A DNA stretch of 64,000 nucleotides from Chloroflexota bacterium (GCA_043803245.1 JAZDKE010000013.1:4142-68141), one strand, 5' to 3'. Shown: positions 9,116 to 43,300, counted from the stretch's first letter. Translations and numbers: made by a program. Notes: generated by a model not told the origin, from the letters alone.

Positions 9116-9180
9116 CCTCTCCCCCTCTCTCTATAAGGGTTTTACCTTAAAACTGGTACTTGCACCAAAAGTACAACAGG

Positions 9181-9603: not shown

Positions 9604-9623
9604 ATCTTCCTCACTTAACCAGT

Positions 9624-9701: not shown

Positions 9702-9741
9702 TTATAAACCTCCTAATTTAATTTTGAGCTTTTATCCTGAG

Positions 9742-10263
9742 CTAGCTTTCTTCGTTAAGACCTTTCCCTTTTTTCCGAAGGATGCGGTCAATCTCCTGCC
9801 ACATGTCTTTCCCGGCTTTTTTCTCCACAATCTGCACGTCATCGCCCAGGGTGGAAAAATTGGCGTACATCCGCTCAAGACGCTGGTTCAGCTTTTCGGC
9901 AGACTTGGCCGTGGCCGGGAAGCGCTGGTGCATCCCCGCAGCACGGATGGCCATCTTCATGAAAGGGTGTCCGGCATTCATGTCCACCATCTCATTGAAC
10001 TCCTTAACCACCTCCGGCGTGGGCTTACCTTCAATCCGGTTACGCTCGTAAGTCCGGTTAAAGGACTTCTCCAGGACTTCTCGCAGCTCATCGGCATACC
10101 GGGGAAAGGCTACCGGCAGGGCGCGGTAGATTAAACAAATCAACATCACCCGGAAGACATTGGGGAACCGTCTCCTAGCGGCAAAGTCGAACAAAGAGAT
10201 GTCAAGAGTGCGGTAGTCCTTCTCGGTAAGGGGCATGACTACCGCCTGGATGAAAAACATCAC
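9742..10263 (-). CDS. Hypothetical protein
   Basis: 173-aa ORF co-directional with its neighbours. No family recognised. The start may be the internal Met at 10236. Confidence 0.55.
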   Translation of the reverse strand: MMFFIQAVVMPLTEKDYRTLDISLFDFAARRRFPNVFRVMLICLIYRALPVAFPRYADELREVLEKSFNRTYERNRIEGKPTPEVVKEFNEMVDMNAGHPFMKMAIRAAGMHQRFPATAKSAEKLNQRLERMYANFSTLGDDVQIVEKKAGKDMWQEIDRILRKKGKGLNEES

Positions 10264-10294
10264 GACGTCGCCAAGCGTCCTTTCCTTTACGATG

Positions 10295-11551
10295 TTAAAG
10301 CCACCTCGTTTTTTTTCGCTGGCTCTTGGCAGAACGGTGGTCGGGCAGGTGTTCCGAAACCAGCTTTGATTCCACCAGCCGCCAGAAACTCTCCCGGTCG
10401 CCGCCGGTGACCACCGCCTGCTCGTGGGCTTCGCTTAAAGCGGCGGGATAACCGTGCCCGCGCCGGCACTGGTCGAAAACCAGGGCGTGAACCAGACCGA
10501 GCAGAACACCGTCATCGGCCACCCAGGCAGGCACCTCGATCCGGGCAATCTCCGCGCCCACCCCGAGGTAGAAAAACTTAACGCGGTGAGCGCCGTAGTA
10601 TTTACCGACCACCGCCGAGTGACTGGCGAAAAGCTCCGACCTTTCCCCCTCGCCGAGCAGCCGGCTAAACAGCTCACGGTCGCAAATACCAGCCACGGCA
10701 TCACAAGGCCGGCTCTGGCGGGCCGGGCAGAGGTCGCAGTCCGGCTTTTCGTCCGGGCAAAGCGCCACCCGCAGGGTATTGGTCACCTCGGTGCTGCCGG
10801 GCAGGCTGATATAGCTGGCAAGAGCCAGCCGTCGGCCCCCGTTAAGCCGCCTCATAGATTCAAAAACCGGCAGCAGGCCTTCTTCGAGCAGCCGGTAGCT
10901 CACAAAATCGGGGTAGGCTTCAAGACCCCAGAGCACCAGCGTGCCGTCGAGCAAAGCCAGAGCGGTGCTGCCCGCCGCCAGACCGGCCGCAAGTTCCGCA
11001 AGCCCCCGGCATTCCTCAATGCCGCGCTTGATGCCGAGCAAACTGCCATCAATCACCTGCTCCCGCCCCCTCGGGCCGGGCGGGGCGAGCACCAGGTCGG
11101 CTTCGGTAAAATAAAGCCTGGGACGGCTGGCCAGCGCCGCCCCCGGAGAAGAGCCGTAGCGCAGGGCCACCGTGCCAATGTTGACCAGAAAGCAGGGGGG
11201 GCTGCGGTGGCGATCAAGCTCAATGTGAGAGCCGTCAGCCCCAAGAACGGTAAACTCATCGGGCAGGCCAGGTAAAGGATAACGCCCCGAGAGCCCGCCA
11301 AGCAGACCCGCCACCAGCCAGGTGGTGCGGCTCTGGGCGGCTTTAGCTTTCAACTCTTCCAGGCGGCTGTCCTGCTCCATAAACAGGCTGAAAGCCCCAT
11401 CAAGCCGCTGGTGACGCTCATCACGGCCGGAGCTAAACCGGGCGACCATATCAGCCACCTGCTGGGCGACTTCGGCTAAATCAAGCGACAAGCTCAACTC
11501 CTCCCGACTAGGCCAGGTAGAGGACACGCCCGCAGTTGCCACAGTGGACAA
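10295..11551 (-). CDS. NurA-like nuclease domain protein
   Basis: 418-aa ORF with the two NurA-type motifs VLGADGSHIELD and ALLDGTLVLW. The start is uncertain because it overlaps the upstream gene by 44 nt. Confidence 0.6.
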   Translation of the reverse strand: MSTVATAGVSSTWPSREELSLSLDLAEVAQQVADMVARFSSGRDERHQRLDGAFSLFMEQDSRLEELKAKAAQSRTTWLVAGLLGGLSGRYPLPGLPDEFTVLGADGSHIELDRHRSPPCFLVNIGTVALRYGSSPGAALASRPRLYFTEADLVLAPPGPRGREQVIDGSLLGIKRGIEECRGLAELAAGLAAGSTALALLDGTLVLWGLEAYPDFVSYRLLEEGLLPVFESMRRLNGGRRLALASYISLPGSTEVTNTLRVALCPDEKPDCDLCPARQSRPCDAVAGICDRELFSRLLGEGERSELFASHSAVVGKYYGAHRVKFFYLGVGAEIARIEVPAWVADDGVLLGLVHALVFDQCRRGHGYPAALSEAHEQAVVTGGDRESFWRLVESKLVSEHLPDHRSAKSQRKKTRWL

Positions 11552-12290: not shown

Positions 12291-12319
12291 TTGGCAATAT
12301 AATACATTTGTGCTAATAT
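12291..12319 (+). promoter_or_regulatory. Sigma70-like promoter ahead of the terS-like gene
   Basis: TTGGCA (12291-12296), a 17-nt spacer, then TAATAT (12314-12319). Confidence 0.5.
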
Positions 12320-12371
12320 GTTTAGCCTAAGGCGGATAGAAACCAGGGAAGCACCCAGGGGGTGAAGCCGA

Positions 12372-12734
12372 ATGGAACTCGTAGAAAAAAGAAAAGGGGG
12401 CGCCCCGGCCGGCAATCAGAATGCCCGAAAACACGGGTTTTATTCCCGGGTGCTCGATGAAGATGAGCGGCTGGACTTTGAGGAGGCTTCAAGCGTGGAG
12501 GGCATTAGCGACGAAATCTGCCTCCTCAGAATAAAAATCAAGTCGCTCTTGCGCCACGACCCCCAGAACATCAAGCTGATAATGGCGGCGACCAACACCC
12601 TGGCCCGGCTGGTACGCACCCATTACAACATCGGCGCCAAGGACAAAAAGGGCCTGATGGAGGCCATCGCCAACGTCCTCAAAGACGTCGCCCTGCCGCT
12701 GGGCATCAGCCTCGGCACCAAGTTGAAACGGTAG
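12372..12734 (+). CDS. Putative terminase small subunit-like protein
   Basis: 120-aa ORF directly upstream of terL. The N-terminal GAPAGNQNARKHGFYS motif is common in small phage proteins found next to large terminases. Confidence 0.5.
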   Translation: MELVEKRKGGAPAGNQNARKHGFYSRVLDEDERLDFEEASSVEGISDEICLLRIKIKSLLRHDPQNIKLIMAATNTLARLVRTHYNIGAKDKKGLMEAIANVLKDVALPLGISLGTKLKR

Positions 12735-12755
12735 CCGGTCTATTTACGTTTTGCT

Positions 12756-14156
12756 ATGGTCACTTCCTCACTGAACCGGCTTTACCCTTACCAGCGTGAA
12801 ATTGCCCTGGCAGTGCTCGACAGCGTTTTTAACCGCCGCGGTCTCACCTTCTCGGTGGAAATCGCCCGGCAGGGAGGCAAGAACGAGCTATCCGCCCAGC
12901 TGGAGCTGCTGCTGCTGACCCTCAATATAAACCGCTCCCGGAACCTGATAAAATGCTCGCCGACCTTCAGCCCCCAGACGGTCATCTCGATGCGGCGTTT
13001 GGAAGACCGTCTGAACGACGCCGGTTTCGGCGGCATCTGGACTTCTGAACTGGGCTACATCATCCGGCTGGGCTATGCCCGGGCCATCTTCCTCTCCGCC
13101 GGGGAGCAGGCCAACGTGGTCGGCAACACCGCCCACCTGCTCCTGGAAATCGACGAAGCGCAGGACGTGAGCCGGGAGAAGTACAACAAAGAATTCAAGC
13201 CCATGGGGGCCACCAGCAACGTCACCACCGTCCACTACGGCACCACCTGGGATGACCGCACCCTGCTGGAAGAGACCAGGCAGACCAACCTGGAATTAGA
13301 GCGCCGGGACGGTATCAAGCGCCATTTCCGCTACGACTGGCAGGAAGTGGCCAAGTTTAACCCCGATTACCAGGCGTACGTGACCGCGGAACGGGCACGG
13401 CTGGGAGAAGACCATCCCCTGTTCTTAACCCAGTACCGGCTCCTGCCGATTTGTGGCGGTGGCCGCTTTCTCTCTCCGCAGCAAAGGGCCCAGCTCCAGG
13501 GGGAACACCCGCGAAGGCACACCCCACTACCCGATAGCATCTGCGTGGCGGGCATCGACCTGGCCGGAGAAGCCGAAGAGGTGGAGGGCAATCAACTGCG
13601 GCAGCTAAAACCACGCCAGGACGCCACCGTGGTCACCATCGCCGAGCTATTGCGCGGTGACGAAATCACCGGCCAGCCCGTAATACGCATCCTGGAGCAC
13701 TACTGGTGGACGGGTAAAAAACACACCGAGGTCTATGCCCGGCTGCTCGACCTGCTTAAGAACGTCTGGCGCTGCCGGCGGATTGCCATTGACGCCACCG
13801 GCGTCGGGCAGCCGGTGAGCTCCTTCCTGCGCCAGGCGCTCGGCTCCCGGGTAAAACCCTTCACCTTCACCGCCGCTTCCAAGTCGGAACTGGGCTTCGA
13901 GCTGCTGGCGGCGATAAACTCGGGCCGCCTCAAGGTCTACACCGGCGACGGCTCTCCCGAATACCAGGAATTCTGGTCCGAGATGGAAAAGGCAAAAAGC
14001 CACTACCGCCCCAACCAGACCTTGAATTTTTACCTCGACGCCGCCGAAGGCCACGATGACTTCCTGATGAGCCTGGCACTGGTGGTCCAGGCTGCCAGCC
14101 ATTATGAGCCCCGGGAGGCTAGAGGCGGGGATATCCCGGTAATACACCCACCTTAG
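12756..14156 (+). CDS. Phage terminase large subunit
   Basis: 466-aa ORF with ATPase motifs ARQGGKNE (Walker A-like) and LLLEIDEAQD (Walker B). The C-terminal nuclease-like segments are AGIDLAGE, DATVVTI and IAIDATGVG. Confidence 0.8.
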   Translation: MVTSSLNRLYPYQREIALAVLDSVFNRRGLTFSVEIARQGGKNELSAQLELLLLTLNINRSRNLIKCSPTFSPQTVISMRRLEDRLNDAGFGGIWTSELGYIIRLGYARAIFLSAGEQANVVGNTAHLLLEIDEAQDVSREKYNKEFKPMGATSNVTTVHYGTTWDDRTLLEETRQTNLELERRDGIKRHFRYDWQEVAKFNPDYQAYVTAERARLGEDHPLFLTQYRLLPICGGGRFLSPQQRAQLQGEHPRRHTPLPDSICVAGIDLAGEAEEVEGNQLRQLKPRQDATVVTIAELLRGDEITGQPVIRILEHYWWTGKKHTEVYARLLDLLKNVWRCRRIAIDATGVGQPVSSFLRQALGSRVKPFTFTAASKSELGFELLAAINSGRLKVYTGDGSPEYQEFWSEMEKAKSHYRPNQTLNFYLDAAEGHDDFLMSLALVVQAASHYEPREARGGDIPVIHPP

Positions 14157-14303
14157 TGTCTATTCTCGTTAACAGGTAAATATTCGACTTTATGAGAAAT
14201 GAGCCGATGTGCTATTCACCGACAGGATTCGGTCGGATGCCCATCCCGATATCATCGGGACTCCCGGATGGCAGACATTCGGAGAGGTTAGATATTATAT
14301 ATA

Positions 14304-16091
14304 TTAATAATAGGCGGTCTTTCGGCCTATCCAGAAACCCAGGAGGCCAATAACCAGGGCACCAACCCCGACCAGTGCGTAAATGCCCCAGGTGGGCAAC
14401 GCGAAAGAAAAGCCGGTATAGAACGAAGACGGTTTGGTCCAGTCGCTCTCATTAAAAGCGCCGTCAACCGCTTTAACCCGCCAGTAGTAAGGCTCTTTCT
14501 TGCTGGCCGTCTCAAGTTTGTCGGCTTCTTCAATACTGAACTCAGAATCAGTCAGCCCTTTCTCATCGTACAGGAGCTTCTTAAAGTCGGGGGCGGTGGC
14601 CAGCTGGAAGTTATAGGTTATATCGCTGGGGTCGGTAACATCCTCCCACTGGAAAGTCAAAACCCGTCCCGCCCTGGCTTTGTCCTTTGGCGATAGCATC
14701 TCCGGCACCGGGGGCGCGGTAGATTCCATGGTAAAAGTGTCGCTGAAGGAGTTGACACTGTCGGTGGCGACTACCTGATAATCGCCGCCTTTTACTGCCG
14801 GGGCTTTAAAACTAGCCTTGAAACCCCCGTTGGCCGCCACTTTTGCCTGGGTCATTTCGACGCCGTCAAAAGTTACCGTCGCCTGGGCATTAGGTACAAA
14901 ACCGGTAGCGTTCACTGATATCGTGGTGCCGACGTTGCCTTCCTTGGGTTCAAAATTACCGGTGACCACCATGGTAAAATTCCTCGATGAGCTTAAGGTG
15001 CCGTCGCTGACCTCAACCAGATAGGCACCAGCGGCACCGGAAACAGTGAAACTGCCGCTGAAGGAGCCGTCGATTGTCGTAGCCATCGGTGATGGCGTAG
15101 TGACCACCAGAGCCCCGCTAAACTTAACGCTGATTTCCCGGTTAAGCCCGAAACCGGTGCCCGAGACGCTGACCACCGTGCCCACCGGTCCGTTGGTCGG
15201 GCGGATGGTTATTTTTTGCCCGACGGTGAAGGTCGCCGTGGCGGAACTATTACCGCCCCGAACTTCAACGGTATGGTTGCCCCGGGTGCTGGGAGGAACG
15301 GTAAAGATGAGGTTATTGAAAACACCCTTGTCGCTGGTCACCGATGGAGCCGCCGGCACGATAACACTATCAAAGTAAATGCCCAAGCTCTGGCCGGCTC
15401 CAAAACCGTTACCGCTTACCGTAACCTGGTCGCCAGCCCCACCCGAGGCCGGCGTGATGGCGATTTTAGACGATACGACATAGCTCAAGGTCGGGGAAAG
15501 AGTATCGCTGCTATCTTTCGCGGAGAACGTGTGAGAGCCACCAGCAGTCTCAGGAACGGTAATCACGGTGTCGGTGAGGGCGCCGGTGCCGCTGGTGTTT
15601 ACCGGGTTGCCCACTATGTTGCCATCAAAGCGGATTCGGGCAGTGGAACTGGGGGTGAAACCGCTGCCGCTAACCGTAACCCGGTCGCCAACGTAGCCCG
15701 ATGCGCTTGAAATCGTGATTTTCGGGTCAATGACCACTTTAATCCTAAAATCTTTGATATTACTGGTATCGCCGGCGGTGGTGGTCACCTTGACCGCATA
15801 CCAGCCGGCGGGCAGGTCGGGGACGATGAAGTAATTCGAGAAAACGCCGGAATCAACCCGGTTATCTGGATTTACCGGGGTTCGAAGACTATTGTTGAAG
15901 AGAATGGTATAGAAACTGCCATCGGTGAAACCGCTGCCCCCAATTCCCACCCTGGTTCCGACGGCCCCTTCGATAGCCGACAGGTTGATTTCGCCGGACA
16001 GGGCAAAGGCCGGCGCTGCCGGTATGACCAGGATACCGAAAACCGCTAACAGGCCTGCCGCCCACAGGTAAAACCGTCGCCAATCTTTCAT
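14304..16091 (-). CDS. Cell-surface protein with repeated IPT/TIG-like Ig domains, an FN3-like domain and a C-terminal TM anchor
   Basis: 595-aa ORF with an N-terminal signal peptide and at least 5 repeats of G..G..V.VSG.GF. A WEDVTDPS..YYWRVKA block resembles FN3, and the C-terminus is a hydrophobic helix followed by RK. Confidence 0.7.
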   Translation of the reverse strand: MKDWRRFYLWAAGLLAVFGILVIPAAPAFALSGEINLSAIEGAVGTRVGIGGSGFTDGSFYTILFNNSLRTPVNPDNRVDSGVFSNYFIVPDLPAGWYAVKVTTTAGDTSNIKDFRIKVVIDPKITISSASGYVGDRVTVSGSGFTPSSTARIRFDGNIVGNPVNTSGTGALTDTVITVPETAGGSHTFSAKDSSDTLSPTLSYVVSSKIAITPASGGAGDQVTVSGNGFGAGQSLGIYFDSVIVPAAPSVTSDKGVFNNLIFTVPPSTRGNHTVEVRGGNSSATATFTVGQKITIRPTNGPVGTVVSVSGTGFGLNREISVKFSGALVVTTPSPMATTIDGSFSGSFTVSGAAGAYLVEVSDGTLSSSRNFTMVVTGNFEPKEGNVGTTISVNATGFVPNAQATVTFDGVEMTQAKVAANGGFKASFKAPAVKGGDYQVVATDSVNSFSDTFTMESTAPPVPEMLSPKDKARAGRVLTFQWEDVTDPSDITYNFQLATAPDFKKLLYDEKGLTDSEFSIEEADKLETASKKEPYYWRVKAVDGAFNESDWTKPSSFYTGFSFALPTWGIYALVGVGALVIGLLGFWIGRKTAYY

Positions 16092-16156
16092 TACACTCCC
16101 CCTTTATCTCCGCTAACCGCGTCACCAAAACAACTTCTAAACCACAATGATACTCT

Positions 16157-16185
16157 TTTATAACAATTACCGCTCGCTGTGTCAA
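16157..16185 (-). promoter_or_regulatory. Sigma70-like promoter for the IPT/TIG gene
   Basis: On the minus strand: TTGACA (16180-16185), a 17-nt spacer, then TATAAA (16157-16162). Confidence 0.5.
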
Positions 16186-16228
16186 CCTTGCCGCCGCACG
16201 CCGTCGCTGGAAGTGTGACAAAAAGGCA

Positions 16229-16258
16229 TTGACATCAATAGAACACTTGTACTATATT
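16229..16258 (+). promoter_or_regulatory. Sigma70-like promoter for the HTH/portal operon
   Basis: TTGACA (16229-16234), an 18-nt spacer, then TATATT (16253-16258). Confidence 0.55.
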
Positions 16259-16290
16259 AGCACCGACACAGGCTTTGCGAGGGTAGGACA

Positions 16291-16614
16291 ATGGCGTTAG
16301 GCGAAAAACACTTAGACCCGGCAACTATCCAGGACACCCCCGACGCGCTGCCGGAATTCTGCCACTACCGGGACGAAGGCTGCGAGCTGGCCACCAGGGA
16401 ACTGGGCCAGCCTTCCCGGTGCGCCCGGTGCCCTTTCCCCGAGTGTCTCTACGCCGAGCCCGCCGGGCAGCGGAAGTGGCTCAAAGGGCTGCGGGACCGC
16501 GAGATACTGGCCCAGTTCCGCCAGGAAGGGAAAACGGTGAAAGAACTGGCCAATTGCTTCCAGATAAGCAAGAGAACGGTACAGCGAGTGCTAAAGAGGA
16601 CGAAAAATGACTGA
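16291..16614 (+). CDS. Cys-rich small protein with C-terminal HTH
   Basis: 107-aa ORF with five Cys in the N-half (C..C..C..C..C) and a C-terminal KTVKELANCFQISKRTVQRVL helix-turn-helix. Its stop overlaps the portal start by 8 nt. Confidence 0.55.
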   Translation: MALGEKHLDPATIQDTPDALPEFCHYRDEGCELATRELGQPSRCARCPFPECLYAEPAGQRKWLKGLRDREILAQFRQEGKTVKELANCFQISKRTVQRVLKRTKND

Positions 16615-17989
16615 AAACTTCATCGCCGAGCTAAACCGCCGGGACACCGAACGAATCAAATCCTACCAGACCCTGCTCAATTTCTACCAGGGGCAGCACT
16701 GGCCGGACCGCCCCCGTTGGGGAGAAAAACGCCTCACCTTCAACTATGCCCGGCTGTTCGTGGACAAGATAACCTCCTACTTAATGTCGGGCGTGAGCTT
16801 CGCCATTGATGCCGCCCAGGACAGCGACCAGGCCAGGCAACAGGCACAGCGGGCCGAAGCCGCCCTGCTCGAGGTCTACCAGCAGAACAGTCTGGAACAG
16901 CTTGACCTCGAAACGGAGACCGACTGCGCCGTGATGGGCGACGCCGCCTACAAGGTAATCTGGGACAGCGCCGCAAAAACGGTGCGGGTGACCGCCCCCG
17001 ATATCCAGGGCATCTACGCCTGGTGGCCGGGCGACGACGCCGCCCAGGTCTGGCGGGTAGCCTCCAAATACCGCCTCTCCCCGGAGGAAAGCGAGCGGCT
17101 CTACCAGCGCAAACCGCGGGGCGAGACCGCAACCGTCATCGAGGTCTGGACAGATGCTAGTTTCGAGCTTTACCTGGATGGCGAGCTGCTCGAAAGCCGG
17201 CCCAACCCCTACCGATGCATACCTTTCGTTATCTACCCTAACATGCGCGAGCCCAAGAAATTATGGGGGGTCTCCGACCTTGTCCCGATTATGGAAGGCC
17301 AGCAGGAACTCAACCGCGCCCTGAGCCAGCTATCGAGAATCCTGGAGCTGTCCGGCAACCCCATCGCGGTGCTGGAGAACGTGGAGGGGTCACAGGACAT
17401 CGCGGTGAGACCCGGCGCCGTCTGGAACCTGCCGGAAGACTCCCGCGCCTATCTGCTCGACCTCCTGCAGGGCGGGGGCCTGAACCTCCACATTGATTAC
17501 ATCAACCTGCTCTACCGGAGCCTGCACGACTTAGCGGAGTCGCCCCGGGCGGCCTTCGGCGGCACGGAACGCGACCTCTCCGGCGTCGCCCTGGAAATTG
17601 AGCTCCAGCCGCTGCTGCAAAAGGTCAGCCGCAAACGCATCATCCGCAGTGCGACTTACAACCGCCGCAACCGCCTCATCCTGGACCTGCTGGAAAAGTA
17701 CCGGGGTGAGGACTTCGGCCCCCTGCGCCTGCGCACCGTCTGGTGCCCGGTAATGCCCCGCGACACCGCACGTCTGGTCTCAAGCGAACAGACGCTCATC
17801 CAGAGCGGCATCCATTCCCGTCGCCGGGCGATGGACGAGCTGGGAGTGGCCGACCCGGAGTTGGAGTTCCGGCGGTGGCTCGAAGAAAGAGCGCAAATCC
17901 TGAAAATGAACCAGGAATTTAATGCCCGAGGCCCCAAGACCTCAAGGGAGAGAGGCACCGAAGGCCGGGCTGACGGCAGCGAAGAATAA
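16607..17989 (+). CDS. Phage portal protein
   Basis: 460-aa ORF between terL and the scaffold/capsid genes. Its size and the N-terminal YQTLLNFYQGQHW pattern are typical of SPP1-gp6-type portals. Confidence 0.7.
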   Translation: MTENFIAELNRRDTERIKSYQTLLNFYQGQHWPDRPRWGEKRLTFNYARLFVDKITSYLMSGVSFAIDAAQDSDQARQQAQRAEAALLEVYQQNSLEQLDLETETDCAVMGDAAYKVIWDSAAKTVRVTAPDIQGIYAWWPGDDAAQVWRVASKYRLSPEESERLYQRKPRGETATVIEVWTDASFELYLDGELLESRPNPYRCIPFVIYPNMREPKKLWGVSDLVPIMEGQQELNRALSQLSRILELSGNPIAVLENVEGSQDIAVRPGAVWNLPEDSRAYLLDLLQGGGLNLHIDYINLLYRSLHDLAESPRAAFGGTERDLSGVALEIELQPLLQKVSRKRIIRSATYNRRNRLILDLLEKYRGEDFGPLRLRTVWCPVMPRDTARLVSSEQTLIQSGIHSRRRAMDELGVADPELEFRRWLEERAQILKMNQEFNARGPKTSRERGTEGRADGSEE

Positions 17990-18010
17990 GCTAAAAAGGA
18001 GGTGAGACTC

Positions 18011-18502
18011 TTGCCCGAGGAAACCGTAATCGTGGAACCAGAGCATAGCCCGGAGCCGGAAGGCAAGCCCCAAGCCAATGCTGAGCGTGAGGAGATGGCC
18101 GGGGCGGCCCAGATTGCCGAGCTCGAAAGCCGGTTAGCCGAAAAAGAAGCGGCTTTATCCGGGGCCAACGAACGCCTGAGCAGGCTGGCGGCGGCCATCG
18201 CCGAGCTGGAGGCCAGACTCGCCCGGGCCGCCGCCAGCTACCGGACGCTCATCATTGCGGCCCATCCCGAAATTCCCGAAGACCTGATAAGCGGCCAGAG
18301 CGTCGAGGAAATCGAGGCCTCCCTGGAGAAAGCCCGCAGCCTGGTGAGCCGGGTGAGACAGGGGCTGGAGATGGCTGCGACCCAGGGCCGGGTGCCCCCC
18401 GGCGCACCCCCGAGGACGGTACCTGACCTGTCGAGCCTGTCCCCGCGCGAAAAAATTCAATACGGCATAGGAGGTAAGAAAAATGGCATTAACTCTTTCT
18501 GA
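18011..18502 (+). CDS. Scaffold-like coiled-coil protein
   Basis: Ala/Glu/Leu-rich ORF in the canonical position between portal and capsid genes. AAGGAGG lies 8 nt upstream of TTG 18011; the track ORF starts at 18002. Confidence 0.5.
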   Translation: MPEETVIVEPEHSPEPEGKPQANAEREEMAGAAQIAELESRLAEKEAALSGANERLSRLAAAIAELEARLARAAASYRTLIIAAHPEIPEDLISGQSVEEIEASLEKARSLVSRVRQGLEMAATQGRVPPGAPPRTVPDLSSLSPREKIQYGIGGKKNGINSF

Positions 18503-19403
18503 AGCGAGCAAGCTCGCTAACGACGTCCTGCTTCAGGGTGTGGTCGAGACCATCGTCAAGGAGTCCCCGGTGCTCCAGCGGCTGCCCTTCATCGAAATCG
18601 CCGGCAACGGTCTCACCTACAACCAGGAGAAGACCCTGCCCGGCATCGACTTCTACGATGTCGGCGATACCTGGGTGGAATCCACTCCGACCTTCGAGCA
18701 GAAAACCGCCCATCTCAAGATTATGGGTGGCGACGCCGACGTGGACAACTTCCTGAAGTCCACCCGGAACAATATCCAGGATTTGGAGACGGCGGTGGTC
18801 GAACTCAAGGCCAAGGCCCTCAAGGACAAGTTCGAGGAGTCTTTCATCTACGGTAACGCCACCGCCAATCCCAAGCAGTTCGACGGCCTGAGACTGCTCA
18901 TCGGCACCACCAGCTCAGGCGGCCAGGTAGTTGCCGCCGGCGCCACTGGCGCCACCCTGACCCTTTCCATGCTCGACCAGCTCATTGACACCGTAAAAGG
19001 CGGCAAGCCCGACATGCTGCTCATGAGCCGGCGCTCGCGAAGGAAAATCAACGCCCTGGTGCGCGCTTCCGGCAGTATGCTGGACACCGACCGCGACCGC
19101 TGGGGCAACTTCGTCCAGTACTGGGACGGCATCCCCATCGGGGTTAACGACTGGATACTGGACACCCACAACGTCGCCGGCAGCGTGGAAACGGCCACCA
19201 CCGGCGGTGACAGCTCCACCATCTACGCTGTCCAGCTAGGAGAAGGTGCCCTTGCGGGACTGACCAGCCCGGGACACATGGTCGCCGAGCACATCGGCAA
19301 CCTTGAGTCCAAAGACGCCAGCCGCACCCGGGTCAAGTGGTACGTCTCGCTGGCGCTCTTCAGCACGGTCAAGGCCGCCGCATTAATCGGCGTGCAGGAC
19401 TAA
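18483..19403 (+). CDS. Phage major capsid protein (HK97-fold type)
   Basis: 306-aa ORF preceded by a GGAGG RBS. Its position and sequence pattern (..FIYGNATANPKQFDGL..) are typical of major capsid proteins. Confidence 0.75.
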   Translation: MALTLSEASKLANDVLLQGVVETIVKESPVLQRLPFIEIAGNGLTYNQEKTLPGIDFYDVGDTWVESTPTFEQKTAHLKIMGGDADVDNFLKSTRNNIQDLETAVVELKAKALKDKFEESFIYGNATANPKQFDGLRLLIGTTSSGGQVVAAGATGATLTLSMLDQLIDTVKGGKPDMLLMSRRSRRKINALVRASGSMLDTDRDRWGNFVQYWDGIPIGVNDWILDTHNVAGSVETATTGGDSSTIYAVQLGEGALAGLTSPGHMVAEHIGNLESKDASRTRVKWYVSLALFSTVKAAALIGVQD

Positions 19404-19465
19404 AGGAAATGCCTTTCAGGAGGACTTAAAATAGCCCCCGTTCTACGCCTGAAAATAAAACCTGA

Positions 19466-19489
19466 GGGGGGAGGCAGCTGCCTCCCCCC
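19466..19489. terminator. Perfect 24-nt GC-rich palindrome after the capsid gene
   Basis: GGGGGGAGGCAG/CTGCCTCCCCCC. An A-tract lies upstream on the + strand, which equals a T-tract downstream on the - strand. Confidence 0.4.
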
Positions 19490-19507
19490 CCGATGAGGAG
19501 GATTAAT

Positions 19508-19972
19508 ATGGCACTGAGCGTAATCGAACACACCGAGCATCCCTTCGCCAGGGGGAGCCTGACCGCCGACGGCATCCAGTGGTCGGCGGAGAAGACCACC
19601 AGCACCGATGACTACGAGACCGTCGAGCAAGCTACGGTGAAGCCGCCGGCCCTGGGCACCATCCTGGAGTTCGAGTTCGGGCTTACCTGCGCCATAAAGT
19701 CAAGCGGAGCCACCGAAGCTGCCAAGTTCAAATGGCAGGCGTGCAACAAAGGCGGCACCTGGGTTGACCTCCACGACGAGGTGACCTACGCCGCCGATGC
19801 CTCAAGCTACCGCGGATATACCTACAGCGGTCGCCGCGGCACAGCGGCCAACTTCAACACCGTGCCTTTCGAAGTCCGGCTGGTAATCAAGTCCGGCGGG
19901 GCCGGAGGTGAGAATGCCACTAGCAAGACCAAAAACTCAAGCTACGTCAAGGTAATCTACGCTGCTGCGTGA
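19508..19972 (+). CDS. Hypothetical structural protein
   Basis: A GAGGAGG RBS precedes ATG 19508. The 154-aa product is beta-rich and sits downstream of the capsid gene. Confidence 0.5.
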   Translation: MALSVIEHTEHPFARGSLTADGIQWSAEKTTSTDDYETVEQATVKPPALGTILEFEFGLTCAIKSSGATEAAKFKWQACNKGGTWVDLHDEVTYAADASSYRGYTYSGRRGTAANFNTVPFEVRLVIKSGGAGGENATSKTKNSSYVKVIYAAA

Positions 19973-19980
19973 GGTGCGCT

Positions 19981-20619
19981 ATGGACTTTATCCGCGATAC
20001 CAACCTCATCCTCTACCTGCCGCTCTATGAACTCGATGGCGCTTCCATCCAGGACAGGTCGGCCTATGGCCACCTATCTGTGGTCACCGGTGCTTTGTGG
20101 ACTCCGCAGGGCAGGAGTTTTGACGGGGTAGATGACCAGATAGCCATCGCCACCAGTACAGTCTTTGATATACCTGATACCATCACGCTTGAAGGTTGGA
20201 TAAACATAGCAAGTGTTGTCAGTATGGCGGGCTTTATCGCTCGGTCTACTGGATGGGAACTCCGGCAAAGTGCCAGTGGCCAAATAATATTCCTGCCTTT
20301 TATTGATGCTGCTTGGCGAGACGGTGGGGCAAGTAGTGTTTTATCTGCGAGCCAGTGGTTTCATATTGCGTTCACATATTCTAGCGCTACCAGACAGGCA
20401 CTAACGTACCGCGATGCAGTTTTGGAGAGTTCCGTTATATTTTCGGGACTTGCTAGTTACACATTGGGAACTGGCGCAGCTTCAGTACTATTAGGTTACG
20501 ATGTTCTGAACGGCGTGGTTTTCAATGGCAAACTAGGCGAAATCCGCATCTACAATCGTGTTCTATCTGCGGTAGAGATACAGAATAACTACCTCGCTAC
20601 GAAGTGGAGGTATCAATGA
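19981..20619 (+). CDS. LamG/concanavalin-A-like lectin domain protein
   Basis: Laminin_G_3-type pattern: D.S..G......GA.W...G..FDG.DD.I; W.HIAFTY; F.G.LGEIRIYNRVLSAVEI. The DNA is visibly more AT-rich than its neighbours. Confidence 0.7.
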   Translation: MDFIRDTNLILYLPLYELDGASIQDRSAYGHLSVVTGALWTPQGRSFDGVDDQIAIATSTVFDIPDTITLEGWINIASVVSMAGFIARSTGWELRQSASGQIIFLPFIDAAWRDGGASSVLSASQWFHIAFTYSSATRQALTYRDAVLESSVIFSGLASYTLGTGAASVLLGYDVLNGVVFNGKLGEIRIYNRVLSAVEIQNNYLATKWRYQ

Positions 20620-20834
20620 AGTATCGAGTAAAACTGGACTTGTTATTTGACAATGAGGCTCTAGCCCGCAACCTGATGAGCTATGCCAAGTCCCTTACGG
20701 GCAAGGCGACGAGCCTTAACGAAGGCAACGCCAGCGAGGAGATAAGCTTCGCCGATATCCACCTCTGCGGGCACGACGAGTCCCCACCCAAGCCTTGCCA
20801 GCCCATGGAACGGGTCGAGGTGAGAAAGGCGTAA
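20616..20834 (+). CDS. Hypothetical small protein
   Basis: A GGAGG RBS precedes ATG 20616. The product is 72 aa. Confidence 0.45.
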   Translation: MKYRVKLDLLFDNEALARNLMSYAKSLTGKATSLNEGNASEEISFADIHLCGHDESPPKPCQPMERVEVRKA

Positions 20835-20844
20835 GGAGAACGAG

Positions 20845-21477
20845 ATGAACTTGAGCGATATGAGGACCACCGTCCGGCGCGAGCTCCACGATGAGGACTC
20901 TGGCAACTACCGCTGGAGCAACGACGAGCTCGACCGGCACATCGCCCGGGCAGTGGGAGAACTCTCCGAGCACCTTCCCAGCGAGCAGAAAGCGACCAAA
21001 GCCACTACTTCCGGCTCGCGAGAACTGGACATCACCAGCCTCGCCGACCGGGTAATGGTCGAAGCCGTGGAGTACCCGGTGGGCCAGTTTCCCCCCAGAT
21101 ACCAGCGCTTCGCGCTCTGGGGGGAAACCCTGACCCTGCTCGGCGATGAGGTCCCCGGCGGGGGCAACGCCTACGTCTACTACGGCAAACGGCACACTCT
21201 TGACGCCCAGGGCACCACCATCCCCAGCCGCTACCAGGACCTGGTAGCCGGCGGCGCCGCCGGCTACGCCGCCGTCGAATGGGCCGCCTACGCCATCAAC
21301 CGGGTGAACGTTGGCGGCCACCTGACACCCCGCGAATTCCTCGACTGGGGGAAGGAAAAACTGGCTTTCTTCCAGAGCGAGCTCAGGCGGCTGGGGCGGC
21401 GGAACCGGACCAGAGTGAGCACCCTCTACCGTCCCTATTACCCGCCGGTGTCCCAGATCACCGACTACGGGCCATAA
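20845..21477 (+). CDS. Head-tail adaptor-like protein
   Basis: 210-aa ORF with an AAGGAG RBS. The N-terminus (LSDMRTTVRRELHDED..YRWSNDELDRHIARA) resembles phage connector/adaptor proteins. Confidence 0.45.
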   Translation: MNLSDMRTTVRRELHDEDSGNYRWSNDELDRHIARAVGELSEHLPSEQKATKATTSGSRELDITSLADRVMVEAVEYPVGQFPPRYQRFALWGETLTLLGDEVPGGGNAYVYYGKRHTLDAQGTTIPSRYQDLVAGGAAGYAAVEWAAYAINRVNVGGHLTPREFLDWGKEKLAFFQSELRRLGRRNRTRVSTLYRPYYPPVSQITDYGP

Positions 21478-21504
21478 GCAAGTCTGACCAGGGTGAGATG
21501 AAGA

Positions 21505-23508
21505 ATGAGAAGCCTTACACAAACACTAACCAGCGCTCAAAAGGCACCGGCTAAAATACCTTATGTCAAACTGAAAGCCCGGAACACCACCGGCGGCCTG
21601 GTACGTCTCGACTGGAGCCGGCTCTACAGCGGCAGCGAGGACGACTATCTCCACGCCGCGACTATGCCCGCCGACGGCTCACTGATACGGGCCAGGGTCA
21701 CCCCGCTTAGCGACAACCTGAAACTCTACCGCCAGCGGGTAGCCAGCCCCGGCCCGGGTTCCGACTTTAGCCAGTGGAGCTACACCAACCAGTACGGCGT
21801 GCTGGCAGTGGCCGGCGCTTCCCGGGACGCCGAAGCGTCCATTTTCTGGATAAAGAACAACCGTGAAATCCGTCAGATGAAGAGCACCGACTACGGCGCC
21901 AGCTGGGGCAGCCCCACCCTGCTGGACTACTCGCCCACCACCGGGGTGGGCGGCCTGGCAGCCGCCTACAAAAGTAACGGCGACATCGCCCTGTTCTATG
22001 CCGAGCAGGCCACCCTTTACGTAATCAAACGCACCGGCGGTAGCTGGGGCAGCCGCGTTGCCTGGGACAAGTCCACCGGCAACCTGTCGGGCGTGGCTAC
22101 CGCCTATGACGGGGACTGGCACCTGCTGGTGACGGGCCAGGACTCAAGCGGCAACTACCGGCTCTGGTCGCTGGTCTACGGCGACGGCGGTGAGCTGGCA
22201 GCCGGCACCTGGTCAGACCTCAAAACGGTCGCCCAGGCACCCTCGGACGGCGACTATGAATACCACGGCGTCTTCATCGACCTGCCCGACGTCCACCGTA
22301 CCTTCTTCACCGAAAAATATAGCGGCACCGAAGCCTACCAGCGCCCTTTCTGGAGCCACACCATCGCCCAGACCAGCTTCCTGGATAACCTCTGGCGCGA
22401 GCCGGTGCCCTTTAACCTCTCGGCCAGCTACGGTCTGGCCATCACCCATCACGGCGACTGGGCCTGGCTAACCGCCCCCTTTGGCGTCTGGCGAGCCAAG
22501 CTCACCCAGGAGAGCCTTGACCTGGCGGAAGATGTGCTTTCCATCAGGGAGGAACTGGCCACCACCGGCGGCGAGCTTGAGATTGAGTTAAGGAACGATG
22601 ACGGCCGCTACGCCTCGCCGGGGACGGGGGCCATCTCTTTGCTGAACATCGGCGGCGAGCTGGAGTTCAGTCCCGGCTACCGGACGACCGAAGGCAACGA
22701 GGTCAGTGACGGCCAGTTCTTCAGCCTTGAAGCCTGGGAGCACACCAGTTCTCCGGGCAGGGCCACGCTGGTGCTCCATGCCCGCGACGCCTGGCACTGG
22801 CTTGGCAACTTCCGCGCCGGTCACCAGTTCCGCTGGAACAAAGCCAGTGAAGAGCTGAACGTCAAGGGGATGCTCGCCTTCGTGCTGTCCCGGGTGGGGC
22901 TGAGGCTCGAAGTGATATCTCAGTCCAGCACCGCCACCGGGTTCTACCCGGACTTCACCATCAGACCGGGCGACCAGGGCGACGTTATCATAAGCCGGCT
23001 GCTCAGTTTCATACCCGACGTTATCCGGCTGGAAGGCGCTACCGCCTACCTTATTAACCCCCAGACTACCGACAGCGCCGACTACGGCTACGGCGCCGGC
23101 CACGCCATTTTCGAGGGGAGCTACCTCAAAGGCGCCCTCAAGCAAAACCTGGTTGAAGTCGAAGGCTACGACCCGCCAGGCGGCACGCCGATTATCGCCA
23201 GCGTTTTCGACTGGGACGAGATAGGCCGGCTCTACCACCGGCGCCGGCGCATTGAGGACCGCAACCTGAAATCCACCACCCAGGCCCAGGGTCGTGGCGA
23301 GAGCTACCTGAGAGAGGCCGCGATAACGGCCGGGGGCGGCACGCTCCGGGTGCCGGTTAATGCCGGTCAGCAGCTATACGATGTTATCGAAATTACTGAC
23401 CGCCTCGCCGGGCTCGACGCTGAGAAAAAGAGGGTCTTAAAAATCGGCCTGGCCTATCATCCCGCCCGCGCCCGGTACGAGATGAGGCTCGGCCTGGGCA
23501 ATGTCTAA
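21505..23508 (+). CDS. BNR/Asp-box beta-propeller fused to a phage tail/baseplate-hub-like C-terminal half
   Basis: 667-aa ORF with the Asp-box STDYGASW plus related repeats in the N-half. The C-half pattern (ELEIELRNDDGRY..IGGELEFSPGYRT..) is typical of tail hub/late-control-D-like proteins. Confidence 0.5.
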   Translation: MRSLTQTLTSAQKAPAKIPYVKLKARNTTGGLVRLDWSRLYSGSEDDYLHAATMPADGSLIRARVTPLSDNLKLYRQRVASPGPGSDFSQWSYTNQYGVLAVAGASRDAEASIFWIKNNREIRQMKSTDYGASWGSPTLLDYSPTTGVGGLAAAYKSNGDIALFYAEQATLYVIKRTGGSWGSRVAWDKSTGNLSGVATAYDGDWHLLVTGQDSSGNYRLWSLVYGDGGELAAGTWSDLKTVAQAPSDGDYEYHGVFIDLPDVHRTFFTEKYSGTEAYQRPFWSHTIAQTSFLDNLWREPVPFNLSASYGLAITHHGDWAWLTAPFGVWRAKLTQESLDLAEDVLSIREELATTGGELEIELRNDDGRYASPGTGAISLLNIGGELEFSPGYRTTEGNEVSDGQFFSLEAWEHTSSPGRATLVLHARDAWHWLGNFRAGHQFRWNKASEELNVKGMLAFVLSRVGLRLEVISQSSTATGFYPDFTIRPGDQGDVIISRLLSFIPDVIRLEGATAYLINPQTTDSADYGYGAGHAIFEGSYLKGALKQNLVEVEGYDPPGGTPIIASVFDWDEIGRLYHRRRRIEDRNLKSTTQAQGRGESYLREAAITAGGGTLRVPVNAGQQLYDVIEITDRLAGLDAEKKRVLKIGLAYHPARARYEMRLGLGNV

Positions 23509-23538
23509 AAATCGCCGTTACGCCGAAGGAGAGCCGGA

Positions 23539-23751
23539 ATGAACCTGAAAAAAGCCATCCTCAAGAGTTTTAGCCAGAGCGACTACACCGCCACCGTCCA
23601 GCTTAGCGGCAGCCTCAAGGTCTACCTGGAAGATGTCACCGTAGCCCGAAACCTGCCCGCAGGAGAGATGACCGCCGGCCGCAAGGTCGCGGTGCTCTTC
23701 TTCAACGATTTCAATGCCCGAGAAGCCCTGGTAATCGCGGTTTACACCTAG
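23539..23751 (+). CDS. Hypothetical small protein (last gene of the phage-like block)
   Basis: 70-aa ORF with an AAGGAG RBS. Confidence 0.5.
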   Translation: MNLKKAILKSFSQSDYTATVQLSGSLKVYLEDVTVARNLPAGEMTAGRKVAVLFFNDFNAREALVIAVYT

Positions 23752-23777: not shown

Positions 23778-24878
23778 CTAGCCGGGAGGCCGCTGGTTCC
23801 GCCAGTGCCCGGGGATGGCCAGCTCTTTTTTAACCGTTCGGTCGGGCGTCTTATCCGGCTCAGGCGAAATCCGCGGCTCTACCGGGGGATTTTCCGCCTT
23901 TGTCTTATGGGCGAAATGCATCGGGCTGGTATGGGCGATAACCTCCGGGGAATGGGCGGCGACCCGGGGCCGTCCCGGCGAGACAACCGGCACCGGGGTG
24001 AACCTCATCCGGCCGGGAACCTGGGTGGTCTGGGGCGAGCGATATGAAACCATGGGGGCGCTGGGCGCCACCTTCTCGGCGGGCGGCGTCGGCGGTTTTT
24101 CTTCCATTGATTTATAGAAACGGCCCAGCATCTTCTCCTGCTCGGCGGTGGTTCTGGCCAGGTCCTGAGAAGCGGCGCTAAGACCCTGTATTGCCGAAGT
24201 GTGGCTTTTTAAATGCTCGGCATAAAGCTCGATTGCGGAGCCGAACTTGGCCAGGGTCCGCTCCAGGCCGTCCATCTTTTTCTCGGTGTTGACTACCTTC
24301 TCCGCTACCAGCTCGCTACCATGCTGGCTCTCTTCAATGATGCGCCGGTTAGCCTCAATGACCGGGGCGAAAATGCCCTGCTGCAGCCGCATCCGGCCCC
24401 GGTTAATCTCATCGACGTAGAGGAAAAGACCCATCAGGACCACCGAGATAATCAGGAACATCAATCCCTGGTCGCTCTGGAAGAAGAGCAGGATAAAGCC
24501 TGCGTAAGGGATGCGGCTCGAAGCGACACCCAGTATGTCGTTGGAGCGCACCGTGAACGGGTCGCCGCCGGTGTTGTCGCCCTTGGTGCGGAACCCCTTG
24601 CCCGCCGGCCCCATGTCGCGGACTTCGGTCACACGGTGGGCCACTACCGGCGGGTAGTTGTAAAAATCGCGGACGGCTGAGGGCACGCTGAAAACGATAA
24701 CGTCGCCGGCTTTGACGTCATTAGGATTAATCTCACTAATCATAATCAGGTCGCCGGCCCTGAGTTCCGGCTCCATGCTGACGCCGAAGACGGGCATAAA
24801 GGGCATCGCGCCCCGGATGGATAAGAAGCCCGCGACGCAGACCGCGATTACGATTATCAGCAGGAGTAACCTTTTCAT
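23778..24878 (-). CDS. SipW-like (S26B, ER/archaeal-type) signal peptidase I with a long C-terminal extension
   Basis: 366-aa ORF with an N-terminal TM, Ser box GVSMEP, His box AHRV and a KGDN box. A second TM is followed by ~200 aa of helical then Pro-rich sequence. Confidence 0.78.
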   Translation of the reverse strand: MKRLLLLIIVIAVCVAGFLSIRGAMPFMPVFGVSMEPELRAGDLIMISEINPNDVKAGDVIVFSVPSAVRDFYNYPPVVAHRVTEVRDMGPAGKGFRTKGDNTGGDPFTVRSNDILGVASSRIPYAGFILLFFQSDQGLMFLIISVVLMGLFLYVDEINRGRMRLQQGIFAPVIEANRRIIEESQHGSELVAEKVVNTEKKMDGLERTLAKFGSAIELYAEHLKSHTSAIQGLSAASQDLARTTAEQEKMLGRFYKSMEEKPPTPPAEKVAPSAPMVSYRSPQTTQVPGRMRFTPVPVVSPGRPRVAAHSPEVIAHTSPMHFAHKTKAENPPVEPRISPEPDKTPDRTVKKELAIPGHWRNQRPPG

Positions 24879-24933
24879 GTTCGGCTTAACTCGCCCGGTT
24901 CTGGCCCGCTCCTTTTAGACTTACCTATCTTCA

Positions 24934-25008
24934 AAGATAACACCCCATCATAAAAGCGGCCATAAAGATTATAAAGATTCCATTAAGTTTTTATTAAAGT
25001 TTCGTAAA
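24934..25008 (-). promoter_or_regulatory. Phased six-repeat array plus -10 element upstream of the signal peptidase gene
   Basis: Minus-strand repeats start at 25008, 24997, 24986, 24975, 24966 and 24954 (spacing 11-11-11-9-12). TATCTT lies at 24934-24939. The first repeat is 130 nt from the start codon. Confidence 0.65.
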
Positions 25009-25027
25009 ATCGTGCCCTGGCATACCG

Positions 25028-26062: not shown

Positions 26063-26064
26063 GG

Positions 26065-41100: not shown

Positions 41101-41115
41101 TAAAGGTATAAGTAC

Positions 41116-43283: not shown

Positions 43284-43300
43284 TTTCCCCTCCTTTCCTA

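Follow-up and report, generated by a model that had tools for sequence, protein, structure and literature searches.

What does a compact set of phage packaging and head genes do in a bacterial chromosome where no genes for integration, replication or lysis accompany it? The question is raised by a 64,000-nucleotide stretch of DNA from a Chloroflexota bacterium (GCA_043803245.1, JAZDKE010000013.1:4142-68141; this whole stretch is called the window below), in which such genes form an island at positions 12,291 to 23,751. An earlier reading made from the sequence without database searches (the sequence-only reading) offered three explanations for the island: a domesticated particle of the gene transfer agent (GTA) kind, a capsid-forming satellite dependent on a helper, or a decayed short-tailed prophage. 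The comparative evidence described here supported the first of these, and the satellite and the decayed prophage were rejected. The island probably encodes, as far as its genes allow us to judge, a domesticated, vertically inherited, SOS-induced, GTA-like DNA-packaging particle with a minimal tail in the Dehalococcoidales. This reading is based on the full set of head and packaging genes, the reduced tail tip, the lack of selfish modules, the order-wide inheritance, the dispersed and co-regulated modules and a host SOS operator.

The list of open reading frames (ORFs) and the gene map showed two operons on the plus strand between 12.3 and 23.8 kb, one consisting of terS and terL and one running from a helix-turn-helix (HTH) gene through a gene for a 70-aa protein. 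The operons comprise 12 conserved plus-strand genes, the HTH gene and a gene for a 76-aa protein among them. The eleven co-directional ORFs of the sequence-only reading therefore had to be recounted, also because a gene for a 595-aa protein at 14304-16091 lies on the minus strand. An ORF of 53 aa at 14192-14353 showed no conservation in related loci and is probably spurious.

The first gene of the packaging operon, terS (12372-12734, 120 aa), encodes the small terminase subunit, which matched phrog_1889 (E = 5e-8) and the NCBIfam TerS family NF040601 (E = 8.5e-7, below the cutoff). The GNxNAxKHG motif that had been noticed earlier reads GNQNARKHG and occupies residues 14-22; the median identity of the protein across loci was 67%. 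It is followed by terL (12756-14156, 466 aa), the large terminase subunit with ATPase and RNaseH-like nuclease parts, which matched Pfam Terminase_6C above the cutoff (E = 4.8e-7) and in which a Walker-A-like RQGGKNE, a Walker-B-like LLLEIDEAQD and the nuclease Asp motifs could be recognised by eye. The head operon opens, in nearly all loci, with the HTH gene (16291-16614, 107 aa), the product of which is a small Cys-rich protein with a C-terminal Mor/sigma70-region-4-like HTH (Pfam HTH_23, E = 8.4e-6; Mor, E = 6.2e-5). It also matched a PHROG annotated as late transcriptional activator (E = 2.9e-6), making it a candidate activator. Next are the gene for a portal protein of the SPP1 Gp6 type (16607-17989, 460 aa; SPP1_portal, E = 3.8e-25; phrog_64, E = 4e-37) and that for an Ala/Glu-rich coiled-coil protein (18002-18502, 166 aa), to which the role of scaffold was assigned based on a weak match to phrog_1793 (E = 2.3e-4) and on its position between the portal and capsid genes in all loci. 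The major capsid protein with HK97 fold (18483-19403, 306 aa) scored 203 bits against NCBIfam NF045672 (MCP_gp7_epsi_15, cutoff 75) and 42.8 bits against Pfam PF17236 (cutoff 24.1), and matched phrog_212 with E = 6.5e-69; by these scores it belongs to the epsilon15 gp7/SU10 capsid family. Beyond a variable cassette that is described below lie the genes for a head-to-tail adaptor of the SU10 family (20845-21477, 210 aa; Pfam PF24175, E = 4.6e-8, 34.2 bits against a cutoff of 27; median identity across loci 69%), for a 667-aa tail-tip protein (21505-23508) and for the 70-aa protein (23539-23751). The last of these had no family match in Pfam, PHROGs or NCBIfam, follows the 667-aa gene in at least 54 loci with approximately 66% identity, and is a candidate tip or plug. 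The protein roles proposed in the sequence-only reading (terminase subunits, portal, scaffold, capsid, LamG, adaptor and hub) were recovered, that of the scaffold with a weak match. With these assignments, the genes are predicted to encode a full DNA-packaging head (terS, terL, portal, scaffold and epsilon15-type capsid) and a minimal tail tip (adaptor, hub-propeller protein and 70-aa protein). When the capsid protein, portal, adaptor and 667-aa protein were compared with the PDB by sequence, nothing significant was found.

For the 667-aa protein, more than 1300 homologues that hardly differ in length were found, but no matching sequence family in Pfam, PHROGs or NCBIfam. It was modelled with AlphaFold2 from a 50-sequence alignment, and its C-terminal 367 residues were also modelled alone. 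The mean predicted local distance difference test (pLDDT) score of the entire model was 62, with values of 80-90 in an N-terminal beta-propeller of the BNR/sialidase-like type, which carries the Asp-box STDYGASW, and of approximately 70-85 in a hub domain at about residues 310-520; the C-terminus after the hub was poorly modelled. Foldseek searches of the PDB with the whole model returned propeller lectins and sialidases, and searches of the viral models in BFVD also returned gpD, a '43 kDa tail protein' and a baseplate hub. With the C-terminal model, the top 33 PDB matches were all central hub proteins (E from 1e-5 to approximately 1e-2), including Mu gp44, the MuSo2 43-kDa protein, VgrG, the hubs of extracellular contractile injection systems (eCIS), PVC and AFP, the hub of phage 80alpha and the tips of monocin and diffocin. 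The models so indicate a hub of the gp27/Mu gp44/VgrG type fused to a propeller of a glycan-binding type, encoded directly after the adaptor. In a profile comparison the family showed no similarity to the 633-aa protein that follows the adaptor in a related real phage.

The modules by which a phage moves were searched for with Pfam, PHROG and NCBIfam profiles in the island and in approximately 10 kb on either side, and no integrase, replication, repressor or lysis domain was found. Within the island, genes for a tail tube, a tape measure, a sheath and a distal tail protein were missing, a dedicated scan detected no holin-like small hydrophobic protein, and no att-like repeat flanks it; the entire window contains no tRNA gene. 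The absences listed in the sequence-only reading were thereby confirmed, as was its statement that the flanks are chromosomal, ordinary host genes being present on both sides. No homologues of nozzle, needle, fibre or ejection proteins were found, and the gene after the SU10-type adaptor has the hub fold described above. The island and its flanks thus contain chromosomal, phage-derived structural and packaging genes without modules for integration, replication or lysogeny, which is one of the criteria for a GTA. Another is a release gene, and the island has neither a lysin domain nor a small membrane protein; given the minimal dcw cluster of this genome (see below), such a gene may be unnecessary or encoded elsewhere. 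The G + C content at third codon positions (GC3) of the core island genes was host-like (0.72-0.82), and the LamG gene of the variable cassette alone deviated (0.49 versus approximately 0.77), in agreement with the composition described before. A PADLOC search for defence systems gave no match except one coiled-coil artefact.

To place the island among its relatives, one genome per GTDB species was scanned, which yielded 403 stretches matching the capsid protein and 228 matching TerL; the best 80 of each were examined. Those for the capsid came from 80 different metagenome-assembled genomes (MAGs) labelled Dehalococcoidales, Dehalococcoidia or Chloroflexota, with 77-85% amino acid identity, and those for TerL nearly all from Dehalococcoid or other Chloroflexota MAGs. 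A typical terS-terL pair with 71-72% TerL identity also occurs in two MAGs under the label 'Deltaproteobacteria bacterium' (loci L128 and L130; related loci are cited by such numbers), in L128 together with the adjoining CT398 gene; both MAGs are probably mis-binned or mislabelled. In the protein collection more than 4984 capsid homologues were present, of which the top 120 were all 306 aa long and 81-100% identical. Clustering at 50% placed the whole capsid family in one cluster; the next full-length relatives had 43-54% identity and the nearest deposited phage capsid at most 39%. Two outgroup capsids with 44-47% identity (L361, L363) sit in contigs that resemble genuine short-tailed phages and that encode large ejection proteins (NlpC/P60 or SLT-M23), an SU10-type adaptor, a 615-633-aa protein and an amidase. 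No BLASTP alignment was obtained between the island adaptor and its counterpart in a related real phage. A third outgroup capsid belongs to a deeper sister version of this island (L362). In IMG/VR, 212 'viral' contigs contained the island capsid gene; the best 80 of these measured 4-12.7 kb and represented the same island, some with host flanks, and no complete phage genome carrying island genes was found among them. In full-text literature searches, neither a GTA nor a conserved capsid cluster was found to have been described for Dehalococcoidia. A recent preprint on IME1, an unrelated non-tailed element, states that Dehalococcoides mccartyi KBVC1 is without a known tailed provirus, and the island may be absent from D. 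mccartyi proper.

The order HTH gene, portal, scaffold, capsid, variable cassette, adaptor, hub and 70-aa gene was the same throughout the related loci. The arrangement of a CT398-like gene on the minus strand followed by terS and terL was retained in most of them, with CT398 as the divergent neighbour of terS in 48 of the 68 loci with enough flanking sequence. The distance from terL to a head operon downstream of it was 7.5 kb or less in only 20 of 37 loci. In the complete chromosome CP070842.1 (L023, L109) the packaging and head modules are approximately 677 kb apart and can therefore not be packaged together; in CAZBMB010000006 (L022, L106) they are approximately 25 kb apart and inverted, and in three further MAGs they are on different large contigs. 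The operator described below was kept at both loci in these split genomes. One clade shares an alternative upstream context, which suggests an inherited rearrangement. In CP070842.1, neither the hub gene nor the 70-aa gene was found at L023 or L109; the adaptor gene is followed there by four minus-strand host genes, and the two missing genes may be present at a third locus or lost in this lineage.

Capsid genes were intact and full-length in 166 of 169 cases, the other three being cut by contig ends. Apparent stops in terL were due to alignments running on past the natural stop codon, and true frameshifts were rare (terL in L067; the hub gene in L019, L308 and L354). Two deletions were seen as well. 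In L411 (JAUWIC010000059) residue 242 of the portal is fused to residue 582 of the hub protein, and the same MAG has a second contig with an intact terS-terL pair (L116), which suggests strain heterogeneity; in L120 (CAIWTG010000033) a partial HTH gene runs into the C-terminus of the hub protein and the portal, capsid and adaptor genes are lost.

Selection was measured by pairwise Nei-Gojobori ratios of nonsynonymous to synonymous divergence (dN/dS), at synonymous sites that were saturated (pS approximately 0.7). The ratio was 0.098 for the capsid gene, 0.12 for terL, 0.13 for the 70-aa gene, 0.15 for the portal gene, 0.16 for terS, 0.17 for the hub gene and 0.18 for the adaptor gene, compared to 0.17-0.36 for the flanking host genes, 0.35 for the gene of the 595-aa surface protein and 0.76 for the LamG gene. 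Purifying selection on the island genes is at least as strong as on the neighbouring host genes, and since conservation is strongest in capsid, terminase and portal, DNA packaging itself appears to be the selected activity, and a role like that of a tailocin, or a purely lytic one, is disfavoured. Pairwise dN of island genes correlated with that of adjacent host genes (Spearman 0.56-0.86; Mantel permutation p = 0.001). The island is vertically inherited across the Dehalococcoidales, and vertical inheritance combined with purifying selection is what is expected of a GTA. The sequence-only reading had proposed to look at synteny and dN/dS in related genomes and had named a strain-specific island with decaying genes as a result that would speak against it; the island was found to be syntenic across loci, with dN/dS values of 0.10-0.18, and to occur in hundreds of species.

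Both promoters were detected by a promoter scan at the positions given in the sequence-only reading, the one of the packaging operon at 12291-12319 (-35 TTGGCA, 17-nt spacer, -10 TAATAT, with a TG upstream of the -10) and the one of the head operon at 16229-16258 (-35 TTGACA, 18-nt spacer, -10 TATATT; 11 of 12 matches). What that reading had missed is the operator inside them. Both promoters carry the same near-palindromic 16-bp operator, TAGAACATATGTGCTA, of the form TAGAAC-N4-GTGCTA, between the -35 and the -10. At the head operon (16239-16254, TAGAACACTTGTACTA) it fills the spacer and overlaps the -10, and scored 23 bits with a position weight matrix (PWM); at the packaging operon (12300-12315, TAATACATTTGTGCTA) it is degenerate and scored 15.6 bits. 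Upstream of the HTH gene the operator was present in 72 of 82 distinct loci, in the conserved architecture TTGAC-N4/5-TAGAACATATGTGCTA-aTtT, overlapping an extended -10. The PWM was built only from these sites upstream of the HTH gene and was scanned over 1.86 Mb of related loci. With a threshold of 14 bits it gave 166 matches, 77 upstream of the HTH gene, 82 in the intergenic region between CT398 and terS, and seven inside island genes or adjacent to them. The only sites of 13 bits or more in the 64-kb window were those at 16239-16254 and 12300-12315.

The operator corresponds to a LexA box of the Gram-positive type, GAAC-N4-GTTC, with one T-to-G change, and this change creates the TG of the extended -10. 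In Bacillus subtilis the LexA box is GAACN4GTTC (PMC4234289). When all species genomes were searched for the perfect palindrome, TAGAACATATGTTCTA, it was found to precede lexA by 57 nt in a genome of the Chloroflexota (L166), to adjoin this gene in L232 and L201, and to lie approximately 630 nt away from it in L219; in Chloroflexota it was also found beside genes for Y-family polymerase and RecA-like proteins. Among the matches listed for the exact island variant, four Clostridia had it directly upstream of lexA. It was further found upstream of recA, dinB and radical-SAM repair genes, some of them in Chloroflexota, and the operator sequence also lies upstream of imuB-type genes in other bacteria (Chloroflexota, Firmicutes). 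Approximately 33 of the 120 matches listed for the exact variant were island promoters in MAGs with a Dehalococcoid label. LexA of Dehalococcoides ethenogenes reportedly binds GAACN4GTTC as well. Both the type of box and its promoter-blocking position, in each of the two promoters, are as in a LexA regulon, and we have good confidence in the prediction that both operons are under LexA control.

Similar boxes were seen elsewhere. In a Dehalococcoidia MAG (PL25a_bin.1, L369, box at 3800) a pair of capsid-like genes on the minus strand (301 and 293 aa) has the exact operator next to it; these genes are unrelated to the island and may belong to another SOS-linked phage-like element. In Anaerolineae and Chloroflexia MAGs (L169, L195, L247, L265 and L423), distant relatives of terL, portal and capsid (33-44% identity) are located near LexA boxes, in L195 in the order LexA box, 170-aa ORF, terL. 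Head and packaging clusters with an SOS box may be widespread in Chloroflexota.

Based on these data, a mechanism can be proposed. In undamaged cells LexA would occupy both operators and block RNA polymerase. DNA damage would lead to RecA-stimulated self-cleavage of LexA, by which both operons would be derepressed together, and the zinc-ribbon/Mor-like HTH protein, as the first product of the head operon, may raise late expression. Procapsids would be built from portal, scaffold and capsid protein and loaded by TerS and TerL with DNA, in a headful-type manner and probably with cellular DNA, after which the adaptor would seal the portal. A hub trimer with peripheral lectin- or sialidase-like propellers would form a stub tail that binds the surface glycans of sibling cells, with decoration or adsorption functions supplied by the LamG cassette. 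An endolysin would not be needed for release, because the host is apparently without peptidoglycan.

Several observations count against a GTA-like particle and have to be set beside this proposal. The particle, its packaged DNA and transfer are predicted from MAG sequence. Neither a lysis or release gene nor a tail tube was found at the island; they may be present at loci beyond those sampled, or the particle may not be complete. The model on which the hub domain is based has moderate confidence (pLDDT approximately 62 overall). An epsilon15-type head, in relatives with genomes of 40-60 kb, could be large enough for the 11.5-kb cluster; as the capsid family suggests an ancestor of T=7 size, the classical GTA criterion that the capacity is smaller than the gene cluster cannot be assumed. 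The chromosomal context is conserved only in part, and a few lineages have deletions (L411, L120). With regard to regulation, the terS operator of the window is degenerate (ATAC in place of GAAC), no lexA gene was present in any Dehalococcoidales locus fetched, so that control by LexA is deduced from other taxa, and the operator could in principle be bound by the HTH protein of the island instead of by LexA.

Other explanations were weighed on the same evidence. Conservation, purifying selection and apparent SOS control would give the same comparative signature in a domesticated killer or lysis particle of the PBSX kind, which would package DNA incidentally and be selected for killing competitors, for release of extracellular DNA or for programmed lysis. 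PBSX itself is SOS-inducible and chromosomally fixed, and a tail reduced to a hub may be unable to deliver DNA. However, killing particles such as tailocins are usually headless and dependent on their tails, the island was found to contain neither a contractile or long tail nor a toxin or lysis gene, and the strongest conservation is that of capsid, portal, terS and terL (dN/dS 0.10-0.16), which implies selection on DNA packaging; we regard this explanation as unlikely. A tailocin as such was dropped because a head is present and sheath and tube are missing, and an encapsulin-like compartment because the island does have portal and terminase genes, which rank among its best conserved. A capsid-forming satellite, or a head-only element that borrows the tails and lysis functions of a helper phage, would fit an island with its own capsid, portal, terminase and adaptor in which tail-tube and lysis genes are missing. 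It is very unlikely in view of what such an element should show: no integrase, excisionase, primase or replication gene, att repeat or tRNA was found, the island has the same host neighbours across species and diverges along with them, and the best 80 of the 212 IMG/VR contigs include neither an episomal nor a larger form. In addition, modules that are 25-677 kb apart in some genomes could not be excised as a unit, and the island has a hub protein of its own.

That most phage modules are missing, and that rare deletions (L411, L120) and frameshifts (L067 terL; L019, L308 and L354 hub) occur, is also what a functionless, decaying remnant of a short-tailed prophage would show. Against such a remnant, dN/dS is 0.10-0.18 at saturated synonymous sites, equal to or below that of the neighbouring host genes, 166 of 169 capsid genes are intact across hundreds of species, and the regulatory operator is conserved at both promoters; its probability is close to negligible. 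Finally, an active temperate phage or phage-like element could integrate repeatedly beside the same host gene and have its other modules outside the sampled flanks. LexA-box promoters are conserved in true SOS-inducible phages as well, and related terL and portal genes adjoin LexA boxes in other Chloroflexota. Yet the 10-kb flanks consist of ordinary host genes in dozens of loci, the divergence of the island tracks that of its flanks, the best 80 of the 212 IMG/VR contigs are all 12.7 kb or smaller, and the modules are scattered in the complete chromosome CP070842.1, which makes such an element highly improbable. A site-specific temperate phage was dropped on the grounds that divergence follows the host flanks and the modules are split.

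Among known systems, the GTA of Rhodobacter capsulatus (RcGTA) resembles the island in being a chromosomal head and packaging cluster without integrase, replication or lysogeny genes, in its vertical inheritance within an order-level clade under purifying selection, in having genes at several loci and in its control by host regulators, which is predicted for the island. The two are not related by sequence family: no RcGTA-specific NCBIfam or Pfam match was obtained, a PDB match to the RcGTA tail terminator was insignificant (E = 0.29), and the island has an epsilon15 gp7-type capsid and an SU10-type adaptor. Unlike RcGTA, the island is without tail tube, tape measure, distal tail protein, endolysin and holin, has a LexA-type box in both promoters in place of control by CtrA and GafA, and is found in the phylum Chloroflexota. 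Production of RcGTA is influenced by LexA. PBSX, an SOS-inducible, chromosomally fixed, species-wide defective phage of Bacillus that packages host DNA, responds through a Gram-positive-type SOS box, GAAC-N4-GTTC, as is predicted for the island. It differs in its contractile tail, lysis genes and own Xre repressor and in its restriction to close relatives, whereas the island has no sheath, tube, lysis gene or repressor and is conserved over hundreds of species, with saturated synonymous divergence. BaGTA of Bartonella, VSH-1 of Brachyspira, Dd1 of Desulfovibrio and VTA of Methanococcus are, as the island would be, independent domestications of tailed phages into host-controlled, DNA-packaging particles. 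Those known are siphovirus-like or long-tailed, in contrast to the capsid and adaptor families of the island, which are typical of short-tailed phages, and to its hub as the sole tail.

The short-tailed phages of the epsilon15 and SU10 (Kuravirus) kind, together with the contigs L361 and L363, share with the island the capsid family (NF045672) and the adaptor family (PF24175), both above cutoff, and the order of scaffold, capsid, small genes, adaptor and a protein of approximately 620-670 aa. Their ejection proteins (NlpC/P60, SLT, M23), amidase and further tail genes are absent from the island, and its 667-aa protein has a gp27-type hub fold and does not resemble their 615-633-aa protein in sequence. 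Capsid-forming phage-inducible chromosomal islands (cf-PICIs) also have their own capsid, portal and terminase and no full tail, but they are mobile elements of variable presence that have an integrase, replication genes and att sites; no such feature was found at the island. To our knowledge, only a handful of GTA domestications are known and none of these is in Chloroflexota, and we know of no GTA with structural families taken from short-tailed phages, nor of one whose promoters themselves contain a LexA-type box. The island appears to be an apparently independent domestication in a new phylum from short-tailed-phage families, with apparent direct control by LexA. In our estimate it is an evenly balanced matter whether it would be the first Chloroflexota GTA in the full sense, domesticated independently from a short-tailed epsilon15/SU10-like phage, consisting of a head and a hub-only tail and exporting DNA to kin through a LexA switch.

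The variable accessory cassette between the capsid and adaptor genes (19493-20834, plus strand) contains in the window a gene for a 159-aa protein without a Pfam family (19493-19972), the low-GC3 gene for a LamG/concanavalin-like protein (19969-20619; Laminin_G_3, E = 5.8e-19) and the gene for a conserved 76-aa protein (orf76, 20604-20834; conserved in 51-68 loci). Across 131 loci the interval ranged from 62 nt to 3.5 kb, and in 14 of these it was essentially empty. LamG was found in 102 loci, the 159-aa protein in 60, a family of approximately 74 aa to which orf76 belongs in 51, a 168-aa family in 32 and a 135-aa family in 22. LamG was the sole family with a Pfam match; for ten families of the cassette the comparison with Pfam gave nothing. 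Judged from its gene content, the cassette behaves like a swappable decoration or adsorption cassette, and its products are candidates for head decoration or adsorption.

The minus-strand gene between terL and the head operon (14304-16091) encodes a 595-aa cell-surface protein with IPT/TIG-Ig repeats (Pfam TIG, E = 1.4e-16), a signal peptide and a C-terminal membrane anchor. Related loci have zero to three copies of such genes at this position (for instance L006, L013, L014 and L041), which evolve fast (approximately 34% identity). In deeper lineages they are absent and terL abuts the HTH gene (L124, L141, L152, L158-L160); the TIG genes thus seem to be host surface genes that were inserted here later. 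Their products could be S-layer proteins, adhesins or the receptor of the particle.

The left flank of the island is host chromosome with genes for GluRS, IspH, an acyltransferase, a patatin, HerA, NurA and the CT398-like zinc-ribbon protein. HerA and NurA, for double-strand-break resection, lie near the left edge of the island at 6906-11551 (minus strand) with the CT398-like gene in between, and NurA has the same position in L012 and L374. The right flank, also host chromosome, contains genes for a SipW-like S26 peptidase and two secreted proteins, response regulators, ribonucleotide reductase and NrdR, and mraZ-rsmH-ftsA-ftsZ. At 23778-27516 (minus strand) the SipW-like signal peptidase, which has a long C-terminal extension, is followed by the two secreted proteins (344 and 483 aa), which share an N-terminal signal-anchor motif and the C-terminal motif VVGGSY..VS...W..GW...PE.Y.EV.QR; this gene group resembles a fibre operon of the TasA/SipW type and is in other genomes often a neighbour of the island. 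A LuxR-type response regulator (receiver and GerE domains; 28864-29643, minus strand) recurs right downstream of the island in many loci (e.g. L012, L018, L044 and L052), sometimes directly after the 70-aa gene, and may be a second regulator of the particle genes or a mere conserved neighbour. ORFs of low GC3 (0.34-0.48) among the high-GC3 host genes are located at 37110-37520, 40216-41457 and 9181-9603 (minus strand); they include an IrrE/M78-peptidase-like gene beside ribonucleotide reductase and may be recently acquired small cassettes. The dcw region (42144-46197, minus strand) consists of mraZ, rsmH (mraW), ftsA and ftsZ only, without mur, ftsW or ftsI between them. The minimal cluster pointed out in the sequence-only reading is thus real, its remark on peptidoglycan is plausible, and the gene set fits a Dehalococcoidia host without peptidoglycan.

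Aquifers, sediments and the deep subsurface harbour abundant Dehalococcoidia, which have small genomes and no peptidoglycan. At least 212 contigs in IMG/VR that are classed as viral would be fragments of an island encoded by the host, and virus counts should leave them out. A new GTA domestication would show how generally bacteria turn phages into devices for DNA export, and a tail made up of adaptor and hub, without a tube, would offer a compact model of how DNA can be delivered by minimal machinery. If the reading as a GTA-like particle is true, the island would provide a major route of horizontal transfer for streamlined subsurface bacteria that lack a wall, relatives of organohalide respirers among them, and a conserved, damage-triggered particle would be a candidate explanation for gene flow in these organisms, for example that of reductive dehalogenase islands.

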